Assembly (NCBI GenBank): GCA_030295235.1
Contig: AP026146.1
Coordinates: 62,001 to 126,000 of the forward strand
Direction: 5' to 3'
From: Fistulifera solaris
Taxonomy: Eukaryota
Length of the DNA: 64,000 nucleotides
A program made the position numbers and the translations under genes. The notes beneath the pieces were generated by a model. The model saw only the letters and a list, made by a program, of their open reading frames with translations. It had not been told where the DNA came from and searched no databases. Positions 2,894 to 30,225 of this stretch are shown here, piece by piece (the first letter of the stretch is position 1; every line of letters begins with the position of its first letter).

Positions 2894-5027
2894 ATGTTAT
2901 TACATGAAAATGATAAACGATGGACGCAAACGCAATTGGTGGTGTTTTTTGTCCTCTTTTTGTTGGCCGTCCCCGAGTACGTTACTTGTTGTTGATGAAT
3001 GAATGAAACGTGAATGTGTATGAATGTATAGGACTGTATTCGACTCACACACACTCTTCACTACCTTTTCTAGATTCAATCCTATACAAATGCTTTATCA
3101 TACATTTTCGACGTTACAACCGTGGCAGGTCGGTTCCTTTTGCCTACTGATGATGGTAACAATCTTCCTTTCGGATGCTCCGCATTTACTCTATGTGGCC
3201 ATACGCATCTTTTTTCATTCCATTCTCAGTATTTTCTTTGATAAAGTTGAAATTATAGGAGCCTATCAGAATATTCCACCACAAGGACCCGTCATCTTTT
3301 GTATCAATCACGCGAATCAATTCATGGATGCTGTCATGGTCTTGTGTACCTTACGCAATCATCGACCCATTTCGTATTTAATGGCCGAAGCCAGTTGGAA
3401 ACGACGGATTATTGGAGATTTCGCTCGGGCGTTGCAAGTCATTCCGGTCAAACGAGCGCAAGATGAAGCGCGGAAGGGTAACGGGCGAGTAGAACTCGTA
3501 CTCGAGAAGAATCAAGAACAAGACGAACAACAACAAGACAAGGACGACAACCAGTCAATCACCCAGCAACTGACACTCCAAGGACACCAAGGTACGCAAT
3601 TTACACAACACACCAAAGTCGGTGACAAGATACGATTGGAAGGTATGGCGTATGCCGCCAAGATTGTGCACATTGAAAGTGATACGTGCTTGCACTTGGC
3701 GTGGGACTCTCCCACAACGCCGCCCCTACACACACGCTTGCAATACGACATTTTGCCGCAAGTCCCACTCCAAGTCGTTTTTGAAAAAGTATTGGATCGA
3801 TTGGCGTTACAAGGGGCGGTCGGGATCTTCCCCGAAGGAGGATCGCACGATCGGACGGATTTGTTGCCACTCAAAATTGGCATTTCCTTATTGGCCTATC
3901 AAGCCTTGGATACACACGGGTTGCGCGTACCGATTATCCCCGTTGGATTGTCGTATTTTCATGCGCATCGATGGCGGGGACGGGCCGTGGTGGAATATGG
4001 AAAACCCGTCTATGTGGATCCTTCCACCTTACCGCAATTCCAACAAGGTGGAGCGGCGCGGCATCACGTGTGTCAGGCATTCTTGTCGCAAGTCGAAGAT
4101 GCCATGCGGAGTGTATTGGTCCAAAGTCCAGATTATGAAACACTCCAATTGTTGCATACGGCCCGACGATTGTATCAACGACCGGAACAACTGTTAACAC
4201 AAGAGAAACAAGATCTGGCGCGGCGTTTTACCGTAGGGTATCAACGATTTGTACAACAAATGGCCGAACATCCCGACGCCATGCCACCGGAATGGATGGA
4301 CTTGCAACGACGATTGAAAGAATACGCGAACGAATTGAAAGAATTGGGTTTGAAAGATTATCAAGTCAACATGTTGGTGGCGTCGGAAGATGAAGAAAAG
4401 GAATCGTCGACGTTGTATGTTGGCTTACAATGGTTGTATGCGGTCGTGCATTTGGTTGTCTTGTTGATGATTGCGGCCGTGCCGACCTTACTGTTGAATT
4501 TACCGGTCGGTGTTCTGGCAGGATTGTACAGTGAACGGAGACGTCAAAAGGCCTTGCAAAAATCCAAAGTCAAGGTACATGGATACGATGTCATGTTGAC
4601 GGAAAAGGTAGTATTTTGTATGGTCATGGTCCCCACCTTGTGGTTCATTTACTTTTTGATTTTACGGTTTGGAACCAACTTGGAAGGTCCGACAGTTTCA
4701 TTGATCATGCTATCGTTGCCCGTCTTTTCGTACATTGGCATCATCGTGGCCAAAGCGGGCATGGTGGGATGGAATGATTTGCGTCCGCATTTGATGCGTT
4801 TGTTCCCTACGACGCGTCCTCGTTTGAAGGCATTACCCGCGACACGAGAAGCTTTGCAAAAGGATTTGCGGGCCTTTATCAAACGGATTGGACCAGAATT
4901 GGGTGACTTGTATTACGAAAAGGAAGTGGATTGGGCGGCCGTGCAAGAAAAGTATCGTCGTAGTAAAGAAGAGTCGTCGGTGGCAGAAATGCCGTTAGAC
5001 AAAAAAAGAGCAGTAGACTGGAATTAG
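2894..5027 (+). CDS. Glycerol-3-phosphate O-acyltransferase, fungal Sct1/Gpt2 type (ER); exons 2894-2976 and 3074-5027
   Basis: Motif I NHANQFMD (HX4D), IPVKRAQD, IFPEGGSHDRTDLLPLK and IIPVGLSY, plus C-terminal TM helices. An upstream exon (MLLHENDKRWTQTQLVVFFVLFLLAVPE) joins in frame through gtacgt...tag. Confidence 0.92.
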
Positions 5028-6222
5028 TAAAGTATGATAAAATATAAATGCGTGAGGAAATGTTTGCATATAATTGATCATCAAGTTACGGTAGGAACCT
5101 CACGAGCGCGTTTGAGTCTCGCCATTTGAAAATGTGAGAGGACAGCAAAGAGAAAAAAAGTGAAGCTATTGTCATAGTCAGGTCGTGTTGATTCAGTCCT
5201 GTGGAGATGCTCTTGACTTGACTCATGAAGCATGCATTGAAATGATAAATAATTTATGAGCACGTTAAAAGCTAAAGTCTAAAGATGACCAGGACGCAGT
5301 TCTCTGTAGGCAGATTAGAATTATTGGTGAATGGGATCGATAATCGGGCTGACAGACTGACATAACCCTTAGCCTCTAAGCTCTAAGGTCAGAACGTAAA
5401 GAACATGCTGAGGACATGTAGTGTACAAGTACTGCAGAATTAAGTCGGACTCGGACTTGGACGCAAGAGGGGCGCATTTGCGGCATAAGTGACGTGTGTG
5501 AGAATCGGGGATTTAAGAAGCAGCCTATTTTCATTGAGTTCCGTGGAGTTCCAGCTTCGGGAAGTTGTTGTATAGCCCAACTCGTAAGGCAGAAAGCTAG
5601 CAACGATGACGACGAGAGGTTCGCATTCGTGGTCGTCAAGTTCCAACCAGTATTCTGCATCAAATTGTTCTTCGTTTACGCCGATGAGTCAAAATCCAGA
5701 TTCCAGCCTTGAAATTCCACGATCGTCTTTTCATCAACTCAGAAGTTGGTTATGATGTTTCTTCATTGAAACTTTGCACATAGAAAATACGTGTGCTTGT
5801 GCGACAGGGATCCCCGACATTGCTGATTATGGTGTGTACGTTTCAAAGTGCTCATCAAAGATACGATTCTGATTGGTCGGGACGATCTGACAATTCTTGA
5901 CTCCTGTCCTGACACGTGACACCATCCTTCCCTTCATTTTCATTATTTGTGGATCGTGTAGAAAGAGTACTGCTTTGCACAAATACATTCATCAATCTGT
6001 CAAAGAACATGTACATCAAACGCTATACAAAAAATCCGCGAAAAAATTCGAACCTTCAAATCTTGGCACCGTTTTCTCTTTCTCAAACACCCATCAAACT
6101 CACTTCATACATTCCCATCAAGCTCATGAGAAAGCAGTTGCTTTTCAAACGGGTAGAATGATGATGGAAACACGTCAAAAAGGCCAGATGCGGCACATCC
6201 AAGTCGCTGCGATCTACTGAGA

Positions 6223-23598: not shown

Positions 23599-24570
23599 CT
23601 ACATTACTCTTCACGCTTATTTACTTTATAAAGACACCATTTTCTTTGATTCAACATCTGGCAATGTGCTTGCTATGTACGCGCATGCACATGCAGAAAA
23701 GCAAAACCCAGTCAGGGACACGAAGCACATAGTTCTATTATTATCATCTAGTGTCTTCTATATCATCATAGCTTTACTTAGATAGCCCTAGATTTTAGCC
23801 AAAGTGTTGAGCAAGGGAGCGTAGCTCTTTCCTTCCATCATTCCCATCTCTCCCGCCATTATAGGTGGGAATGCAACAACCCAAAATGGTCCGGGATGAG
23901 AGTCTTCGTTGGGTAAGTGCAGGGCAACTACAAATGGAGATATTCTTGGGTGTAATGATGTATAATTTCCACATCGTGGAAAACCTGAAGAGAGTAGATG
24001 TTGCTTGTTGCTTTACCTGGTACGTCACTCATGTAAGGTTATGCGTCGTTGGTGTTAGCCGTTCGCACGGCACACGCACACGCGCTAAAGTTCCACTTTG
24101 ACACCGGTTCGATACTTCGGATCAGAATGTACTATACGCATCCGTTGGCTATAGCACATCAAGTACATGACTGTATCTTTGAACTGCACTTGGAGCAGGA
24201 CGATCAGAAATTTTTCCACCTAAAGAGGCACGATTCACTATCTAACACGCAACACCCAAAGATGAGGTGTACACTCCGAATGTAGGCCAGCACATTCGGG
24301 GATTCGGGTGGCTTCATTGGACAGAGCCACGTGTTGCTAATTATCACATGTCGCCACGACGCGGGAAACCGCAAAGAACAGTCCACGTAAAGTGTCATCG
24401 AACGCATTGCGGCACATTGAATTCCGCAAACAGGCAAATGATCCATTCGTGTGTTTTTCTTTACTCGATCGACGTCGAACGAATCTTGCCTATCTTCTTT
24501 AGAAGAATTCTTCGTTCCTTCCAAAAACCTTTCTCGCGAGTCTCGCGAGATCTCTAAAGAGAGGCATAAG

Positions 24571-24573
<3 letters not shown>

Positions 24574-24625
<52 letters not shown>
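24574..24625. repeat. (GA)n microsatellite, about 25 units
   Basis: Read directly; lies about 70 nt upstream of the 24694 ORF. Confidence 0.95.
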
Positions 24626-24628
<3 letters not shown>

Positions 24629-24693
24629 ATATCTGTCACCGAAAGACTTGATTCTATTCCAGAAGAATCATAAAAAACGCACAGAGCGTCAAC

Positions 24694-25089
24694 ATGATTT
24701 CGACGCGGAAGACGATGGAGCCCCGCACTCCTCAACACGTATGGAGAAATAGTGAGAATGCAGTGTTCCATTGTCCTCACCCACCACAACGACACCGAGT
24801 GGAAGAACTACCGGATGAACGATTGTTCCCTCTTTTTCCTTTGCCGTTAGAACAAGAGGAAGATGACGAACGAATGATTGTGCAGTCCTTGCAACGAGTC
24901 TCTCTGCAACCCCGGAAGACGGCTCCCACAAATTGGAAACTGGACACGAGAAGCCCCGAACGACGATCGACCCATCATAATCACTCAGTGCGAGAGTGTC
25001 CCAAGATCCCCTTGAGCGTGGATCCCGAGCATACTTTGCGTGCGCCGTCTTATTATCTTTCCATGAAACCAACTCGGGCATTCATGTGA
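24694..25089 (+). CDS. Small hypothetical protein (TP...FPL...LxPR motif family)
   Basis: ATG in a caacATG context. Motifs PRTP, LFPLFPLP, VSLQPRK and YLSMKP. Confidence 0.6.
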   Translation: MISTRKTMEPRTPQHVWRNSENAVFHCPHPPQRHRVEELPDERLFPLFPLPLEQEEDDERMIVQSLQRVSLQPRKTAPTNWKLDTRSPERRSTHHNHSVRECPKIPLSVDPEHTLRAPSYYLSMKPTRAFM

Positions 25090-25810
25090 GCTAGCTGGGT
25101 TTTATATTCACAGCATTCTGGCTTGTATCTTTTTGTTTCCGTGTCGCAACGATTGTCTTGATTAGCTTATGATGATGATGATGATGTAGAGTTTTGATCC
25201 GAATGTGATTATTAGAAATCGAACATTAATATTTAATGGACAAGTCGTACTAGGTACCCAACGAATAGTAAAAATAGATGTTAGTGAAGAATACACAGTC
25301 GAGTTGCAGCATTTCGTTTCTAGGCGTACAACATAGCAATTGTAACAACCTACTCCGTATATGAGAACAGGTTAAGCCATTCCAAATCAAGCGAATCCAA
25401 CAACGAAAGAGACAAAACGTTGTCATGACACAACGACACGCAGCCATTTCGGCTAGATGAAACAACACAGCTAGGGATGAAAGCTCCTACTAGTCTACGT
25501 GGAGATAGATAGTACACAAAACACCTAGCACTCCGACCAAGGATAAGCCCCAACGTGCACAACATAAAATATTCAGAAAAGTCTCATTTTTGCCATTTCT
25601 TCCAAAAGGAACAAAGGCAACACACACACTTGAGCTTTCTTTGTTGTTTATGACATCAAAAAAGCCACGACGAACCATCATTTCCTATTTGTTCCGTGTC
25701 ACTCCATCAACATCCCAACGATCTTGCGTAAAATCCTCAAATTTTCTCGCACCTTGTTTTTACTAATTTCCGGCTTTTAGATTAAGAAGAATGAAAATGA
25801 TAATAATAAT

Positions 25811-26220
25811 TTACCGCAAACGACGTGCTTCACGTTCCCATTCCAACAAGCACAGAATGTCTCCCTCGCGGACGGGTCCCTTGACGTTGCGGACGATGGA
25901 ACGTCCCGTGGTACCACCACCTTCGGCATCCATGAATTCGACACGAACTTGCGTGACATTACCGGTATTACCCGTTCGTCCGAGAACGCGGTTGACTTTG
26001 GCTAATTTGACGGGTTGATCCTGTTGAAAACAAGCAAACGATAAGTTTTTAGTAATGCGGTAAGTGGTGTGAAGAAGGAACGGAACGAAGGTTGTTTTTG
26101 CAATTGCTCGCTCGTTGTAACGGTCGTGCGGGTTCTCTCTGAATCATTTTTTATTTATTTGAAGAAAAGGAACGAAAAAGAGAAAGAATAGATAAAGACG
26201 TCGAAAAGAAAACGTACCAT
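25811..26220 (-). CDS. RPS28: 40S ribosomal protein S28 (eS28); exons 26218-26220 (ATG only) and 25811-26020
   Basis: The spliced product is [70 protein letters not shown]. The intron is gtacgt...cag. The ORF track does not list this gene. Confidence 0.96.
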
Positions 26221-26567
26221 GGTTGCTTTGTTGTTGTTCAAAGGATTGTGGGCATTTTATTCGATAACACAAAACAAGGGGCGAATGGAGGAACGCCTCA
26301 AACGGATGTGCAGACAGACGAGCGGACGGCTGAACGAGGATTGGACAGAGGGACAGACAATGTCAGATATGAGTGAGTATTGCATTGGTTTTCGTTTTTC
26401 GTAATCCACCTTTGCGTACCGTTCCGACATTGTTTCATGCCGCTTTTGCGGTTGGATGAAAATAGACGCGATCATCGGAACCTATTTTTTTGGGCTTCGA
26501 AGGAACAAAAAGGCAATTGTGCATTGCCTTACTTTCATTATTAGAGCGAACGAAGCTCCCAGTTACT

Positions 26568-27386
26568 ATGAAATATGGTTTACTTCTTTGTTCCTTGTCT
26601 TGTTGGACGGAAGGATGGATGCATTCTGTTTCAAGTAGCCGAAGAAATTACGACAGCAAGTCGCTGAAGACCCTTCGACACTCCAACACTTCAAACAACG
26701 CCATTTCGACGACGACTCGTGAACCTTCCGAGAGAAAATCAAAAAAGAAAACTGAAACAAGTATCAAATCAACGACACCACTGTTTTGGTACAATGCTTC
26801 GGATCCTACCGTCTTTCATTATCACAATAATACTACCACTCTCACCGGTCTGACGTTCCGCATTCGCGGCAATCCCCTACCGTTGCAACGACACCGTCAA
26901 ACCCGACGTGGATTTGTGTACAATCCGTCCTCCATAGCCCAAACGGTCTTTCGACAAGTCCTGGAAACCCAACTGGTATCCCTACCAGAAACACCACTGT
27001 TCCAGGATAATATTCCCCTCCACATGTCTTGTCATTTCTATATGAAACGATCCTTGTCTGATTTTGTCGCCCAAACGCGTGGACGACCTTTGAAAACGGC
27101 AGCCGCCACCGTGTTGTCCACACGGACTCCCGATGTCGATAATTTGGCCAAATTTGTTTTGGATTCTTTGAATGGTTTGTTGTATGCGGACGATCAACAG
27201 ATTGTGTCCTTGTCCGTTCAGAAACTCCGAGACAATGAAGGAGAGTGTTGGGGTTACACGGATGTACATGTATCAGTTGTGAGTAATAAGGACGGGAGTT
27301 CTTTGTTGTTGATGGATGATCTAGATGCCATCCGTCATGTACAAGTATTTCCAACAAATCAACATGGGTTGCAAACTAATCAGTAA
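26568..27386 (+). CDS. RusA-like Holliday junction resolvase with a predicted bipartite (signal + transit) plastid presequence
   Basis: RusA signature PDVDNLAKFVLDSLNGLLYADDQQIV and N-terminal strand FRIRGNPLP...R. Presequence MKYGLLLCSLSCWTEG|W followed by an S/T/R-rich segment. Confidence 0.85.
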   Translation: MKYGLLLCSLSCWTEGWMHSVSSSRRNYDSKSLKTLRHSNTSNNAISTTTREPSERKSKKKTETSIKSTTPLFWYNASDPTVFHYHNNTTTLTGLTFRIRGNPLPLQRHRQTRRGFVYNPSSIAQTVFRQVLETQLVSLPETPLFQDNIPLHMSCHFYMKRSLSDFVAQTRGRPLKTAAATVLSTRTPDVDNLAKFVLDSLNGLLYADDQQIVSLSVQKLRDNEGECWGYTDVHVSVVSNKDGSSLLLMDDLDAIRHVQVFPTNQHGLQTNQ

Positions 27387-27784
27387 CACATGTCTAGAAT
27401 TCTGCTCTTTTGTATTCATTATTCATGTGCTACGGTGTCGATTTCTTTTGAATAGTAACGTTCGAGCGGCGTCAAGGCCGAGCGTGAAGCAACTATATTA
27501 TAGCGTTAGCGAACGCTCCTCCAAGATGCGCCTTGACGTGAAGCGTCAACGGAAAAACCAAAATGTCATCACAATTGTATACTGCACTCTACTCCACGCG
27601 AGTCAGACAGCAAGACGTTTTCCCTCCTTTTTTTCGTTTCCTCGCAAACACGGCACCCTCGCGTCCCTTGTTGTCATTCTTCATCAACTTTTCTCCCCTT
27701 TATATCAAACCGCTCTCTTTCTTTCAACACAACACAAACGAACAGCTCATAAATAAATAAATAAACACAAAGCACAATATAGGT

Positions 27785-28446
27785 ATGAACACAGCACAAT
27801 CATCACTGTTGTTACCGGCCGCCGGACAAGACGGATCGTCCTTTCGGGCTTCCTTTTCCGCCGAAGAAACGTTGATACAGGTGATTCCCGATTTCACGGC
27901 CTCTCCCACATTCATGGCGGGTGTTCCGGCTACAGTTCCTCTGTGGCAAGCAGAATTGTTGCAAACACGTTCGTTGGGTCGCATTGTCTTGCCGGAATGG
28001 TTATCCGTTGATAAATTGCGTCCGATTTTGCAACAAGAAAAGACCCAGCCTTTATTAACGACATCCTTGCCTTTTTATTACTACGAAATTACACGGAAAC
28101 TCACCAATCGACCTCGACATGACGACACAAATCCCGATGTTTTGCGTTTGTTGGTGGAAGACATTTTTCAAGTGCGGGTCGAGAAATTGCGACAACAATT
28201 TCCGGCCTATCTCGCATTAATGGAAGATCAAGAAATCCCCAAAGTCGATGTTCCCGGAATTGCCAGTGCGGAACTGGCACTTTTGGGACCCTTTTATTGC
28301 AAGCACTCGGAGATCGGGCGTTGTTGTTGCATCAAAAGGAAACGACCACGACGACGAAGAAGAATGATTCTGTAGAGGAGGGTGGGGAAAGTATCGTCGG
28401 TGAACCCATTCGACCCAAAGTTCCTCTGCGACGCTTTCGGCGTTAG
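27785..28446 (+). CDS. PSF2: GINS complex subunit Psf2; frameshift near 28293
   Basis: FSAEETLIQVIPDF, AGVPATVPLWQA, IVLPEWLSVDKL, LPFYYYEI and LVEDIFQVRVEKL. Restoring one T gives a C-terminus ...PLRRFRR* with the stop at 28446. Confidence 0.88.
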
Positions 28447-28478
28447 TCGTATCAGTTGTGGTCGTGTTCGAATGCAAT

Positions 28479-28716
28479 GGAAGTGACTCTATTGGGGACT
28501 TGGTTGATCGATCGACGATTTAGGAGTAGGTGCGATTCCGGATAAAAGACGCGATCTCATTCTGTCGCAGCCCCCTGTTCGGGGGCGGTAGTTAGTGCAA
28601 AACGAAGTTCTAATGAATAATAGTGGTCAAAAACACGAGATAACGACTTGCAGGCATAGTAGGCATACTAGGGGCGACCTCTCCTTCACTGTTTTCCGTC
28701 CTCCGAAGTCACTTTT
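28479..28716 (+). ncRNA. Candidate structured RNA or structured 3' UTR (unidentified)
   Basis: Nested long-range complementarities: 28479-28488 with 28707-28716, 28494-28499 with 28698-28703, and 28522-28531 with 28677-28685. Internal GCCCCC/GGGGGC hairpin. Ends in TTTT. Confidence 0.3.
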
Positions 28717-29012
28717 CAATCGGTAAATCATCATCGAAGAAAAAAAGGGCCTTTACGGATGAGTCACGTGACGTTGAGTGAGAGTTTGAGACCGAACTTG
28801 TGTGCGTTCCTTTACAGCGACCGGAGATACGCGATTTACGAAATAGATGAAAAATGTACACACTCGTCGTTATAAATTACGTAAGGAGGAGAAAGGTCAC
28901 TTTCTCCTTTCGTGACAGGACTCGCCATCGTCGCAAAATAAGAAGAACAATAACCAAGAGAGAAAAAAAGAACAAATTGGTTTTTTCCTTGAGCTCGATC
29001 GACAGTTGCTGA

Positions 29013-29426
29013 TCAGCTCGCCTTTTTGTTGAAATCCAAAATCGTTCTTGCTTCACGAATGCGCTCCAAGTCTCCACTGGCCTGTGCCGCTTCCAGTTCT
29101 TCCTCGGCGGCCATATCCAACATTCTCGTCGTTGCATACTGATCCAAAAAGGCGATATTGTTCGGAAGGTTGTATGGCTTTCCCAGACATCCTTGACACT
29201 TGTTATTCCATTGAAGACGCGGGTAGAGCAGTGTCGGAAAGGGCCTTCTTCGTGTGTCAAAACAGTCGTTACTGAGATAGTCTGTCATTGGGCTGCTGTT
29301 TTCGTCGGCGCTGCAGTTCTTGCACATGAAGGAATGTTCGTCGGCAGAAGGATGATACGTATGACGAGGGTCTTGTTGCTGTTGATGATGAGATGGATCG
29401 CTGTAAATATGTCGTTTCTCAATCAT
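29013..29426 (-). CDS. Hypothetical protein, 137 aa
   Basis: ATG-initiated ORF in an aatcATG context, with His/Gln-rich N-terminus, two CxxC pairs and a helical acidic C-terminus. No recognised family. Confidence 0.5.
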   Translation of the reverse strand: MIEKRHIYSDPSHHQQQQDPRHTYHPSADEHSFMCKNCSADENSSPMTDYLSNDCFDTRRRPFPTLLYPRLQWNNKCQGCLGKPYNLPNNIAFLDQYATTRMLDMAAEEELEAAQASGDLERIREARTILDFNKKAS

Positions 29427-30225
29427 GATTTGAAGAAAATAATGAACGTTTGTGTTAAGATGATCACTTCATTGAATGTGGTGATTTAGAAGAGTATTTA
29501 TGAGACTTTTTGACAGGTCAGTTTTTCGCTTCATTGATTTGTTTGAACGGAACGAAAAAGTATCGTGTCTGGGATGTTACACAAAAACGCAAGACTGCTC
29601 TCTGGCACTGTGTACCATAATTATTATTTCGTGCAACTTGCGAACCCACGTGGTGGGCATCACGAATCGTGAAATTCGAATTTAAAACGACAGTGGCGTT
29701 AAGTGTAGACAAGGCTCGACAGGCGCGAAGCCAATTCCGTCTTAGAAAGCGTATCACGCGTTTTTGGAAAAAGAGACGAAAAAGGAAGGATCCCGTGTCT
29801 CACTTTGGGAGAGCTCTTTTCTTCTCGTTCTTTTGTTCGGTCCTGTGCTCGCTCGAAGTCGATAGTACTAAGTATCAAGTATTTTATGAAACAGAATGTT
29901 CGACGACGACTCGTGACCTGACGAAAGCGATCCGGGATATAACGGTTTTGCTTCGTTGACCTTCTTCGAACATGCCTCTTGTCTCTAAATTACTTTGTAT
30001 TTCGAAGATGCAGATGGCCGAAAAGTTTGCACTGTCAAGTGCACGTCTCCAAGGTATTCTCCGCCTACGGAGTTGTGCGTCTTATACTCCATAGATATTT
30101 CAGCATTTCGAACCATCTGTTACTTGAAACTTACGGACAACGCCATGGCAATCCGTGGTCTCGTTTGATTCCATAAACTTTAACCTTTACATAATTTTTA
30201 CGCTTATTTATGGTCAGACACCAAA

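Follow-up and report, generated by a model that had tools for sequence, protein, structure and literature searches.

The locus examined here raises two questions: whether the nuclear genome of the diatom Fistulifera solaris encodes a Holliday-junction resolvase of the RusA family, and in which compartment such an enzyme would act. The gene lies within a window of 64,000 nucleotides, by which we mean the whole stretch of DNA that was analyzed. We read it as a nuclear, intronless and expressed diatom gene for the precursor of a phage-type RusA Holliday-junction resolvase that carries a bipartite plastid presequence, and we give this reading a probability of roughly two in three.

Gene, neighbors and transcript

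The gene, its transcript and its neighbors are placed in the window as follows.

25811..26220, minus strand: RPS28 (S28e); the ATG at 26220-26218 ends exon 1, followed by an intron (26217-26021), exon 2 (26020-25814) and the stop
26530..27418, plus strand: span of a cDNA-like contig, with a 38 nt 5' leader, the whole coding sequence and 32 nt of 3' UTR; poly(A) after 27418
26568..27386, plus strand: RusA-family coding sequence, an intact 272-codon open reading frame (272 aa plus stop)
27785..28375, plus strand: PSF2 (GINS subunit); Pfam Sld5 1e-9 and PSF2_N 1.3e-6

In the list of open reading frames, no in-frame ATG stands between the preceding stop and the start at 26568. A previous interpretation of this DNA, made from the letters alone and called here the sequence-only reading, had described the gene as nucleus-encoded, intronless and located between RPS28 and PSF2. 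Both neighbors were identified by Pfam, with the minus-strand exon at 25814-26020 matching S28e at E 9.3e-29. Splicing of RPS28 is seen in contig X4, where the loose end behind 26021, ATGGTTGCTT, equals window positions 26219-26228. RPS28 and the RusA gene are divergently transcribed and their start codons are 347 bp apart. Because an intron-bearing RPS28 and PSF2 adjoin the gene, its mRNA is polyadenylated and its GC content (44.9%) is like that of the window (45.3%), the gene can be assigned to the nucleus, as had been claimed.

Contig X2 (record 11; 910 nt with 0 other letters) covers 26530-27418 without a joint. Its loose end behind 27418 consists of 21 A, which are untemplated, the genome at that place reading TTATTCATG. 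The RNA nature of these contig runs was deduced from the A tail together with the spliced loose end of RPS28. From the absence of a joint and the untemplated A tail it follows that the mRNA is not spliced and that the first ATG belongs to it, in accord with an intronless gene. The same contig speaks to the concern that transcription might start below the presequence, as it carries both the first ATG and the presequence. No ATG is present in the 38 nt leader. Contigs X3 and X4 begin at 26588 and 26576, respectively, and the M18 codon (26619) is downstream of both. Of X2-X4, only the covered stretches were drawn on as evidence.

Position M18 matters in that database gene models begin there and lose the signal peptide, namely P0002 (the called protein of the window), the Fistulifera-type P0003, and P0226. 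The signal peptide is hidden in these public models because the start was placed at the second methionine, and targeting predictions run proteome-wide on M18-start models would miss the protein. Were M18 the true start, the protein would have an S/R-rich N-terminus, possibly a mitochondrial presequence, and the enzyme could act in mitochondria or in both organelles. Besides the three gene models, this would be in line with the dual targeting in diatoms that is the subject of PMC4494062 and with Kobayashi et al. 2020, whose title assigns MOC1 of algae and bryophytes to both organelles. However, M18 is retained in the closest relatives only (P0005 has L at that place in the alignment), the conservation that is family-wide is that of the signal-peptide layout, and ATG1 is on the transcript contig with the better -3 context, A as opposed to T at the M18 ATG. 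A mitochondrial or dual location is regarded as unlikely.

The RusA core and its relatives

The folded part of the protein and its tail comprise the following features.

26778..26852, plus strand: residues 71-95, a clade-specific extension at the N-terminal side of the folded domain; a beta hairpin predicted on the RusA core
26868..27239, plus strand: RusA domain PF05866 (residues 101-224), Pfam match
27132..27194, plus strand: catalytic motif D189, D191, N192, K195, D199, D208, D209, from alignment to E. coli RusA and invariance
27288..27383, plus strand: C-terminal tail (residues 241-272), disordered and poorly conserved (pLDDT 47-62, alignment)

The Pfam search that the sequence-only reading had proposed was carried out and matched RusA (PF05866) at 55.9 bits, as compared with a gathering score of 22.8 bits (E 8.6e-15, profile positions 2-116 of 124). 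The PHROG family phrog_140, 'RusA-like Holliday junction resolvase', was matched at E 1.8e-19, and PF05866 was present in all 120 homologues among those listed; an NCBIfam search with the protein returned no families. The catalytic signature was earlier described as intact and stands where it had been placed, at 27132-27194. It reads D189-x-D191-N192-x-x-K195-x-x-x-D199...D208-D209 and is invariant in an alignment of 60 sequences as well as in one of 19 homologues.

The equivalents in E. coli RusA are D70 (D189), D72 (D191), N73 (N192), K76 (K195), D80 (D199), D90 (D208) and D91 (D209), a mapping obtained by profile alignment to residues 66-102 of 1q8r, which is weak when taken alone (E 0.26). 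In that profile search of PDB sequences, 1q8r stood behind a spurious low-complexity match to a sodium channel (E 0.11), and a single-sequence phmmer search of PDB sequences gave no RusA, its sole matches being two antibody chains at E about 0.5. Both D72 and D91 have a role in E. coli RusA. The same enzyme is described in PMC12120656, where D70 and K76 are important. R69 of E. coli RusA is unmatched, with P188 at that place in the diatom protein.

An AlphaFold2 model reached pLDDT 89-97 across most of residues 71-240. When it was searched with Foldseek, every one of ranks 1-7 was an E. coli RusA chain (prob 1.00, E 1.9e-6 to 3.3e-4, TM by target 0.69-0.76), and the next matches, to MotB, had a TM by target of at most 0.38. 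In the Atlas structure search, a viral RusA cluster was matched at TM 0.75/0.82. Nothing places the protein with RuvC or MOC1: only RusA was above the Pfam threshold, and no RuvC/MOC1 chain was among the listed Foldseek matches. Prediction as a homodimer scored 0.64, with the best control at 0.00, at least 91% contact agreement between runs and a partner pLDDT of at least 84. Of 30 proteins solved as one-chain pairs, 20 reached the mark for a homodimer, as did 1 of 23 that were solved as single chains; the solved RusA dimer, if memorized by the predictor, may account for the pass. The two chains are predicted to pair symmetrically and to bring the catalytic residues to their interface.

E. coli RusA, from the DLP12 prophage (PDB 1q8r, 2h8c, 2h8e), has its fold in common with the modeled diatom protein, and likewise the symmetric homodimer that is predicted for the latter. 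D70, D72, N73, K76 and D91 are matched, yet no more than 14-15% of aligned residues are identical. An insert, RP-x-x-[HD]-F...LK, is present in the diatom core, which exceeds that of E. coli RusA by about 30 residues, and the protein, which is nucleus-encoded, has in addition a 70-residue presequence, the W74 hairpin and the C-terminal tail. Within the hairpin extension W74 is invariant and D79 near-invariant in the alignments, and the model shows strands 81-85 and 92-100 at pLDDT 89-95. All 104 homologues having at least 60 aa ahead of the domain contain an [FYHLI]W motif, which in two alignments is absent from phage sequences and from the sister group described below as group 2.

With the W74 hairpin and a basic tract added, and with no equivalent of R69 kept, the protein might be a plastid-located RusA-fold protein of a non-canonical kind, acting on other branched DNA (forks, D-loops, flaps) or in degradation of plastid DNA or defense. 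We think this improbable, given the complete acidic set with an invariant K195, an architecture that over its whole length is that of phage RusA, and a predicted symmetric dimer with catalytic residues at the interface.

Eight source organisms of the homologues are fully named, and every one of them is a diatom, with raphid, araphid and centric groups represented. Outside the eukaryote-like set the nearest relatives are tailed-phage RusA proteins of phrog_140 (e.g. IMG/VR L002-L006, and Lactobacillus, Lysinibacillus and Solobacterium phages), with 30-40% identity over residues 95-226; among named phage records identity was 26-34% for the 25 listed, of 61 with a match. These phage proteins have the same full-length domain architecture and have in common with the diatom protein the elements G-x-P-x-x-L-x-RHR, [YF][DN]PS, an RP-x-x-HF insert and PD-x-DNLAKFV-x-D. 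Unlike the diatom protein they are 135-175 aa long, with neither a presequence nor the W74 extension. In a tree of 22 viral and 51 eukaryote-like sequences the branch separating the two had support 100/99. The phage-type affinity that had been proposed was upheld by the place of tailed-phage RusA as closest outside the eukaryote-like set. In phage locus L004, the RusA gene belongs to a replication module that also contains HNH genes and loaders of the DnaD-like and DnaC-like kinds.

Closest to the diatom clade is group 2 (P0146, P0192, P0247 and others), which has 40-47% identity to the domain in the window and which the 100/99 branch does not separate from that clade. Group 2 differs from the diatom clade in having no W74 element, in PR-x-R replacing RHR, and in lacking a signal peptide (see below); its N-terminus is short and acidic with a [VI][VI]DLT motif. 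Pfam gave no families for six ORFs neighboring the group-2 loci L098 and L104. A scan of GTDB genomes with diatom patterns, limited in scope to those patterns, found a single locus in a MAG contig of Flavihumibacter, which matched over 34 residues and is of no use as a prokaryotic relative. A search for shorter proteins gave 14 matches, mainly fragments of eukaryote-type proteins.

The presequence and the compartment

Three features are found ahead of the folded domain.

26568..26615, plus strand: predicted ER signal peptide MKYGLLLCSLSCWTEG (residues 1-16), with inferred cleavage between TEG and W
26616..26777, plus strand: transit-peptide-like region (residues 17-70), with W17 at +1, 41% S+T and a net charge of +8
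26718..26768, plus strand: basic tract R51-K67, within the transit-like region

The N-terminus reads MKYGLLLCSLSCWTEG followed directly by WMHSVSSSRRNYDSK. By a crude proxy, a hydrophobic window at residues 3-10 is above the script threshold. With about 10 residues the h-region is short, and LSC, with W13 at +1, offers another candidate cleavage site. The signal-peptide segment is kept in P0004 (73% identical), and in P0005 an AAG followed by W is aligned with the inferred site. Among the first 20 residues past this site there are 7 S/T, 4 K/R and 1 D/E, and the model of residues 17-70 has pLDDT 53-69 and no secondary structure. In PMC4329603 the plastid class is SignalP-defined, with F/W/Y/L at +1 ahead of a transit peptide that is hydroxylated and net-positive. 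Judged by its residues, the N-terminus resembles the bipartite plastid presequences of diatoms.

Recurrence of this layout was examined with a proxy, a hydrophobic window followed by [AGSC][FWY], which is a crude stand-in for signal-peptide prediction. It was restricted to F/W/Y at +1; a variant allowing L picked leucines inside the h-region. The proxy layout was present in 55 of 92 full-length homologues (+1 residue F in 45, W in 6 and Y in 4), while 200 shuffled sets had a mean of 8.2 (sd 2.7, maximum 17) and reversed sequences gave 4 of 92. In a wider set it was found in 91/162 full-length homologues as opposed to 1/81 group-2 proteins. The h-region was present in 134 of the 162; the 71 homologues that the proxy misses include some visibly truncated gene models and some genuine misses. 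The layout recognized in the sequence-only reading, a signal peptide ending in TEG before W and an S/T/R-rich transit-like segment, is therefore one that recurs in homologues far above controls.

A signal peptide leads into the secretory pathway, and the protein could end at a non-stromal place (the ER, the periplastidial compartment or outside the cell), unrelated to plastid DNA. Only the signal-peptide-like segment is directly visible, and its h-region is short. We know of no DNA in the other secretory compartments of diatoms, and a junction resolvase would therefore have no substrate there. An aromatic +1 residue and a hydroxylated net-positive region are, moreover, what separates plastid from other secretory proteins in PMC4329603. 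Both features are present in the protein of the window and recur in homologues, and a non-stromal end point appears quite improbable.

Finally, the enzyme could be a nuclear or cytosolic DNA-repair nuclease whose hydrophobic N-terminus is unused, the lysine-rich R51-K67 being a nuclear localization signal. The K+R fraction has a median of 0.30 over the 30 aa ahead of the W motif (104 homologues), and the equivalent of R51-K67 is far richer in many homologues. Of 82 proteins in sister group 2, which is without a signal peptide, 64 carry [VI][VI]DLT-plus-acidic motifs; these we take to resemble the SUMO-interaction motifs of nuclear proteins. An upstream co-translational signal peptide would normally prevail, however, and a basic tract is just as compatible with a net-positive transit peptide or with a DNA-binding tail. 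The signal-peptide layout is also conserved in the diatom clade and almost missing from group 2, and the contrast of 91/162 with 1/81 agrees with a switch of compartment between these clades. We consider a nuclear or cytosolic enzyme very unlikely.

A possible role in plastid DNA maintenance

For the phage-type RusA precursor with a plastid presequence, the location, dimeric state, substrate and physiological role that we infer would be as follows. The signal peptide (residues 1-16) would bring the precursor into the ER, after which the exposed W17 and the S/T-rich positive transit-like region would take it across the inner plastid membranes to the stroma, where the presequence would be removed. 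The mature protein would begin around residue 71, with the W74 hairpin and the RusA core and possibly part of the basic tract still ahead, and would form a symmetric homodimer. This dimer may bind four-way junctions of the multicopy plastid genome that arise in recombination-dependent replication, repair and inverted-repeat exchange. D189, D191 and D209 would hold the metal ions for cutting two opposed strands, and the products, ligatable nicked duplexes, would allow nucleoids to separate.

Organelle-targeted junction resolvases have a precedent in the fungal mitochondrial enzymes Cce1/Ydc2, and phage-derived organelle enzymes have one in T7-like RNA polymerase and Twinkle, although protein families and organelle differ in both cases. 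The proposed job is like that of MOC1 of green plants, a nucleus-encoded, plastid-imported dimeric resolvase, loss of which disturbs chloroplast nucleoids; MOC1 is described for plants in PMC7078210. The resemblance is in function only, the MOC1 structure being RuvC-like (PMC7078210) and the RusA fold of the diatom protein unrelated to it.

More tentatively, and with somewhat less than even odds, the diatom plastid may use a RusA of phage ancestry instead of a RuvC/MOC1-type enzyme, re-addressed from group-2-like mobile elements or large viruses and needed for nucleoid segregation. The presequence-less group 2 with its SUMO-interaction-like motifs would then be the RusA of eukaryote-type mobile elements or large viruses, and a phage resolvase would have been domesticated twice, at first in eukaryotic elements and later in a complex plastid.

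To our knowledge no junction resolvase has so far been named in red-lineage complex plastids. Among the papers covered by our full-text searches none dealt with a diatom or plastid RusA, and the main text of PMC5462543 has no occurrence of RusA, Holliday or resolvase. The lone 'RusA' match in a Chlorovirus review was an author name.

The gene is a concrete candidate, testable in transformable diatoms, for an enzyme that may untangle recombining plastid DNA in the diatom lineage. If the reading is true, it would add one more phage-derived enzyme to organelle DNA maintenance and might represent a non-homologous replacement between green and red-derived plastids.

The RusA gene, its fold and its neighbours

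The RusA gene (26568-27386, forward strand) is an open reading frame of 272 codons, which opens with the first ATG in frame downstream of a stop codon. Residues 101-224 of the product match PF05866 (RusA) with an E-value of 8.6e-15 and a score of 55.9 bits (gathering threshold 22.8), bearing out the family proposed by the sequence-only reading; the remaining two Pfam rows fall below threshold. In PHROGs the protein matches phrog_140, 'RusA-like Holliday junction resolvase' (E 1.8e-19), and two more RusA-like families. The catalytic signature and both flanking genes lie where that reading had placed them:

25814-26020, reverse strand, exon of ribosomal protein S28e (RPS28), E 9.3e-29
27132-27194, forward strand, catalytic motif D189, D191, N192, K195, D199, D208, D209 in the Pfam-matched reading frame
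27785-28375, forward strand, PSF2/GINS, neighbour of the RusA gene

With a GC content of 44.9% (GC3 44.7%), equal to the window's 45.3%, and with RPS28 and PSF2 as neighbours, this is a resident nuclear gene, as had been claimed, and a contaminant origin was rejected. RPS28 occupies 25811-26220 (reverse strand). Its exon 1 ends with the three bases of the start codon, and the 197-nt intron that comes next covers 26217-26021. The start codons of RPS28 and RusA are divergent and 347 bp apart, so that a bidirectional promoter may be common to both.

Modelled with AlphaFold2 from an alignment of 60 sequences, residues 71-240 mostly reach block mean confidences of 89-97, the exceptions being 101-120 and 181-190, where confidence dips; residues 1-70 and 241-272 are disordered. 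When the model was searched against the PDB with Foldseek, the top seven matches were E. coli RusA chains (2h8e, 1q8r, 2h8c) with a probability of 1.00, E-values of 1.9e-6 to 3.3e-4 and TM by target of 0.69-0.76; the next matches were MotB domains, with TM by target of at most 0.38. The sequence-level link is weak: phmmer found no solved RusA sequence, and a profile search reached 1q8r at an E-value of 0.26 only, ranked under a spurious match. In the profile alignment D189, D191, N192, K195 and D209 correspond to E. coli RusA D70, D72, N73, K76 and D91, and these residues are invariant in both the 19- and the 60-homologue sets. D72 and D91 of the E. coli enzyme have a part in catalytic function. 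E. coli R69 has no equivalent in the diatom protein, which carries P188. According to PMC12120656, D70 is the key metal-binding residue of RusA and K76 is important. With P188 on one side and the invariant catalytic residues on the other, a protein that resides in the plastid but is not a canonical resolvase seems unlikely.

Two copies of residues 70-245 were predicted together with a score of 0.64 (best control 0.00), a pass that may be memory and shows likeness only, because the RusA dimer is already solved. Contact agreement between runs was at least 91% and partner pLDDT at least 84, and the predicted interface is symmetric, formed by strand 209-220 and helix 189-198. Among solved proteins, the same mark was passed by 20 of the 30 one-chain pairs and by 1 of the 23 single chains. 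A homodimer is thus predicted, with the reservation that the prediction may reflect the solved dimer. By HMM, catalytic residues, fold and predicted dimer the protein is a member of the RusA family, and by Pfam and fold search it is not of the RuvC/MOC1 type.

Two additions precede the RusA core. The first is a basic tract behind the presequence, with a K+R fraction of 0.23 here and a median of 0.30 over the 30 residues preceding the W motif in 104 homologues. The second is a conserved P-x-[FYH]-W...D element, in which W74 is invariant and D79 at least 90% conserved, and which the model folds with high confidence as a hairpin (strands 81-85 and 92-100). In alignment comparison this element is absent from phage sequences and from group 2, the presequence-less RusA-like proteins treated below; as a guess, the hairpin might provide an extra DNA contact.

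Presequence, transcript and start codon

Diatom plastid import, as outlined in PMC4329603, requires a signal peptide whose cleavage leaves F, W, Y or L at +1, ahead of a stretch that is hydroxylated, poor in acidic residues and positive in net charge. The protein begins MKYGLLLCSLSCWTEG up to the putative cleavage site after TEG, and continues WMHSVSSSRRNYDSKSLKTL, with W17 at +1. The first 20 residues past this site include 7 S/T, 4 K/R and 1 D/E, and residues 17-70 are 41% S+T with a net charge of +8, in agreement with the transit-like segment originally described.

Conservation of this arrangement was examined with a crude proxy: an 8-residue window within the first 90 residues whose Kyte-Doolittle hydropathy averages at least 1.9, and [AGSC][FWY] 7-26 residues from its start. 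From 120 homologues (excluding P0002, the window's own database protein) 10 without the strict domain motif were left out, and a further 18 with a non-M start or fewer than 95 residues ahead of the domain, leaving 92. The hydrophobic window was found in 72 of these and the full pattern in 55 (F 45, W 6, Y 4). Shuffled sets (n=200) gave a mean of 8.2 (sd 2.7, maximum 17), and reversed sequences 4 of 92. Among all stored diatom-type proteins the pattern occurs in 91/162 and the hydrophobic window in 134/162; among group 2 proteins starting with M the pattern occurs in 1/81. Among the misses, several come from models plainly cut short or have motifs beyond the thresholds, such as ISA/F (P0008) and VRA/W (P0009). 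These counts give strong indirect support to a conserved bipartite plastid presequence in diatom-type RusA. A secretory but non-stromal location would share the signal peptide, and is improbable beside the S/T-rich, positively charged segment; a nuclear role is the least probable of the readings considered.

Four sequencing runs of one study (X1-X4) were examined over 24500-29500, the kind of library being judged from the contigs. A 910-nt X2 contig spans 26530-27418 without a joint or a single differing letter, and then has 21 A. Because the genome past 27418 reads TTATTCATG, the A run is untemplated and indicates polyadenylated RNA; the RusA mRNA is therefore unspliced and includes the first ATG (ATG1), upholding the intronless gene. 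One X4 contig stops at 26021, and its loose letters ATGGTTGCTT match 26219-26228, so that a 197-nt intron was removed directly after the RPS28 start codon, a second sign of cDNA in these runs. The X1 contig continues at 28089 into CGTATAACTTCGTATAATGTATGC, which we take to resemble a loxP-type library linker; a DNA library would fit, and would account for X1 being the sole run with depth in all 30 bins.

On the X2 contig 38 nt precede ATG1 (26568), with no ATG among them, and further contigs from X3 and X4 begin at 26588 and 26576, both upstream of the codon for the second methionine, M18. A transcript starting downstream of the presequence, which would have undone the targeting claim, was not what the X2 contig showed, although the contigs are not informative on the true 5' end. 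The base at -3 is A for ATG1 and T for the M18 ATG. P0002 (255 aa) starts at M18 and so lacks the signal peptide, as does the closest named homologue, a Fistulifera solaris hypothetical protein (P0003 cluster, 82% identity), while P0004, 73% identical, retains MKYGLLLCSFCCWTEGW. The M18 start drops the segment encoded at 26568-26618 from the P0226 model as well. Use of M18 with a resulting mitochondrial or dual location would agree with these models and is, beside the transcript contigs, not likely. Two long models, P0141 (823 aa) and P0167 (743 aa), carry a full diatom-type RusA unit, internal signal-peptide-like stretch included, behind multi-pass membrane proteins; they look like merged adjacent gene models, true fusions being unlikely.

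Relatives and possible origin

A first homologue search gave 169 proteins at E <=1e-3 among 689 candidates, and PF05866 is present in all 120 of the best 120. All source organisms with full names are diatoms: Fistulifera solaris, Entomoneis sp., Arcocellulus cornucervis, Licmophora paradoxa, Epithemia clementina, Cyclotella atomus, Attheya sp. and Amphora coffeaeformis. One further name is truncated after 'Step'. Because only about a quarter of the database proteins carry names, diatom-type RusA may also occur beyond diatoms. An exhaustive phmmer search with the RusA domain covered 1.84 billion representatives and returned 4353 matches at E <=1e-3, 490 at <=1e-10 and 9 at <=1e-30, the best 150 of the 4353 being diatom-type or group 2.

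The closest relatives of the diatom clade are this large group 2 set (P0146, P0168, P0170, P0176, P0192-P0194, P0219, P0224, P0247 and others), proteins of 146-250 aa from short contigs, without a signal peptide and with 40-47% identity to the window's RusA domain. A group 2 profile gave 979 matches at E <=1e-3, diatom-type proteins among them. A [VI][VI]DLT-plus-acidic motif, which resembles SUMO-interaction motifs, is present by pattern at the N-terminus of 64 of 82. P0337, labelled as a Cetobacterium MAG, nests in group 2; its frame starts within the conserved N-terminal motif, and the contig, of 2970 bp, may be mis-binned. Group 2 RusA is also found on two divergent metagenome contigs, L098 (519-1094) and L104 (1048-1962), linked to homologous frames at 4050-5300 (forward) and 4584-6116 (reverse), respectively, that are 32% identical to each other across 173 aa (E 6e-15). 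These have no Pfam match, and an Atlas feature search gave a weak pointer to 2OG-Fe(II) oxygenases (0.92). The remaining neighbouring frames are long, with proline-rich repeats and no Pfam match; the contigs may represent a eukaryote-type mobile element or large virus.

Phage RusA proteins are more distant relatives than group 2. In IMG/VR 14 of 16 loci span the greater part of the domain, with 30-40% identity, the best 25 of 61 matching phage records show 26-34%, and the nearest Atlas clusters are Uroviricota RusA. In an alignment including phage sequences, the RusA of viral loci L002-L006 has its entire architecture in common with the diatom protein, including G-x-P-x-x-L-x-RHR, [YF][DN]PS and the RP-x-x-HF...LK insert. 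L004 RusA (phrog_140, 2.2e-32) belongs to a phage replication module that also encodes DnaD-like and DnaC-like loaders and contains HNH genes.

A phylogeny was built in IQ-TREE from 73 rows and 147 columns (28 diatom-type, 22 group 2, 22 viral and the MAG-labelled sequence), omitting L009 (identical to L008), L011, L016 and L017. A branch with support of 99/95 has every diatom-type row on one side, and another, with 100/99, has every viral row on one side, in an unrooted tree whose bootstrap had not fully settled and whose phage and bacterial sampling consisted of best hits. Group 2 is not a single clade, and the MAG-labelled sequence falls inside it. A phage origin of diatom RusA via a group-2-like intermediate would be a reading of these relationships, not a result.

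A putative plastid resolvase

We give a probability of about 0.68 to a plastid-targeted RusA Holliday-junction resolvase. The precursor would enter the ER co-translationally, its aromatic +1 residue and transit region would be recognised, and it would be processed in the stroma, where the protein would dimerise and make paired metal-dependent cuts in four-way junctions of plastid DNA; these steps draw on established knowledge of RusA and diatom import. Automatic annotations already label homologues 'RusA-like endonuclease', and in our full-text searches we found no paper on diatom or plastid RusA, with an earlier mention in plastid-proteome tables being possible. Targeting predictions on models starting at M18 would miss the protein. 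In plants, the chloroplast resolvase described in PMC7078210, MOC1, is RuvC-like; since the diatom protein is a RusA, any equivalence between the two would be functional only.
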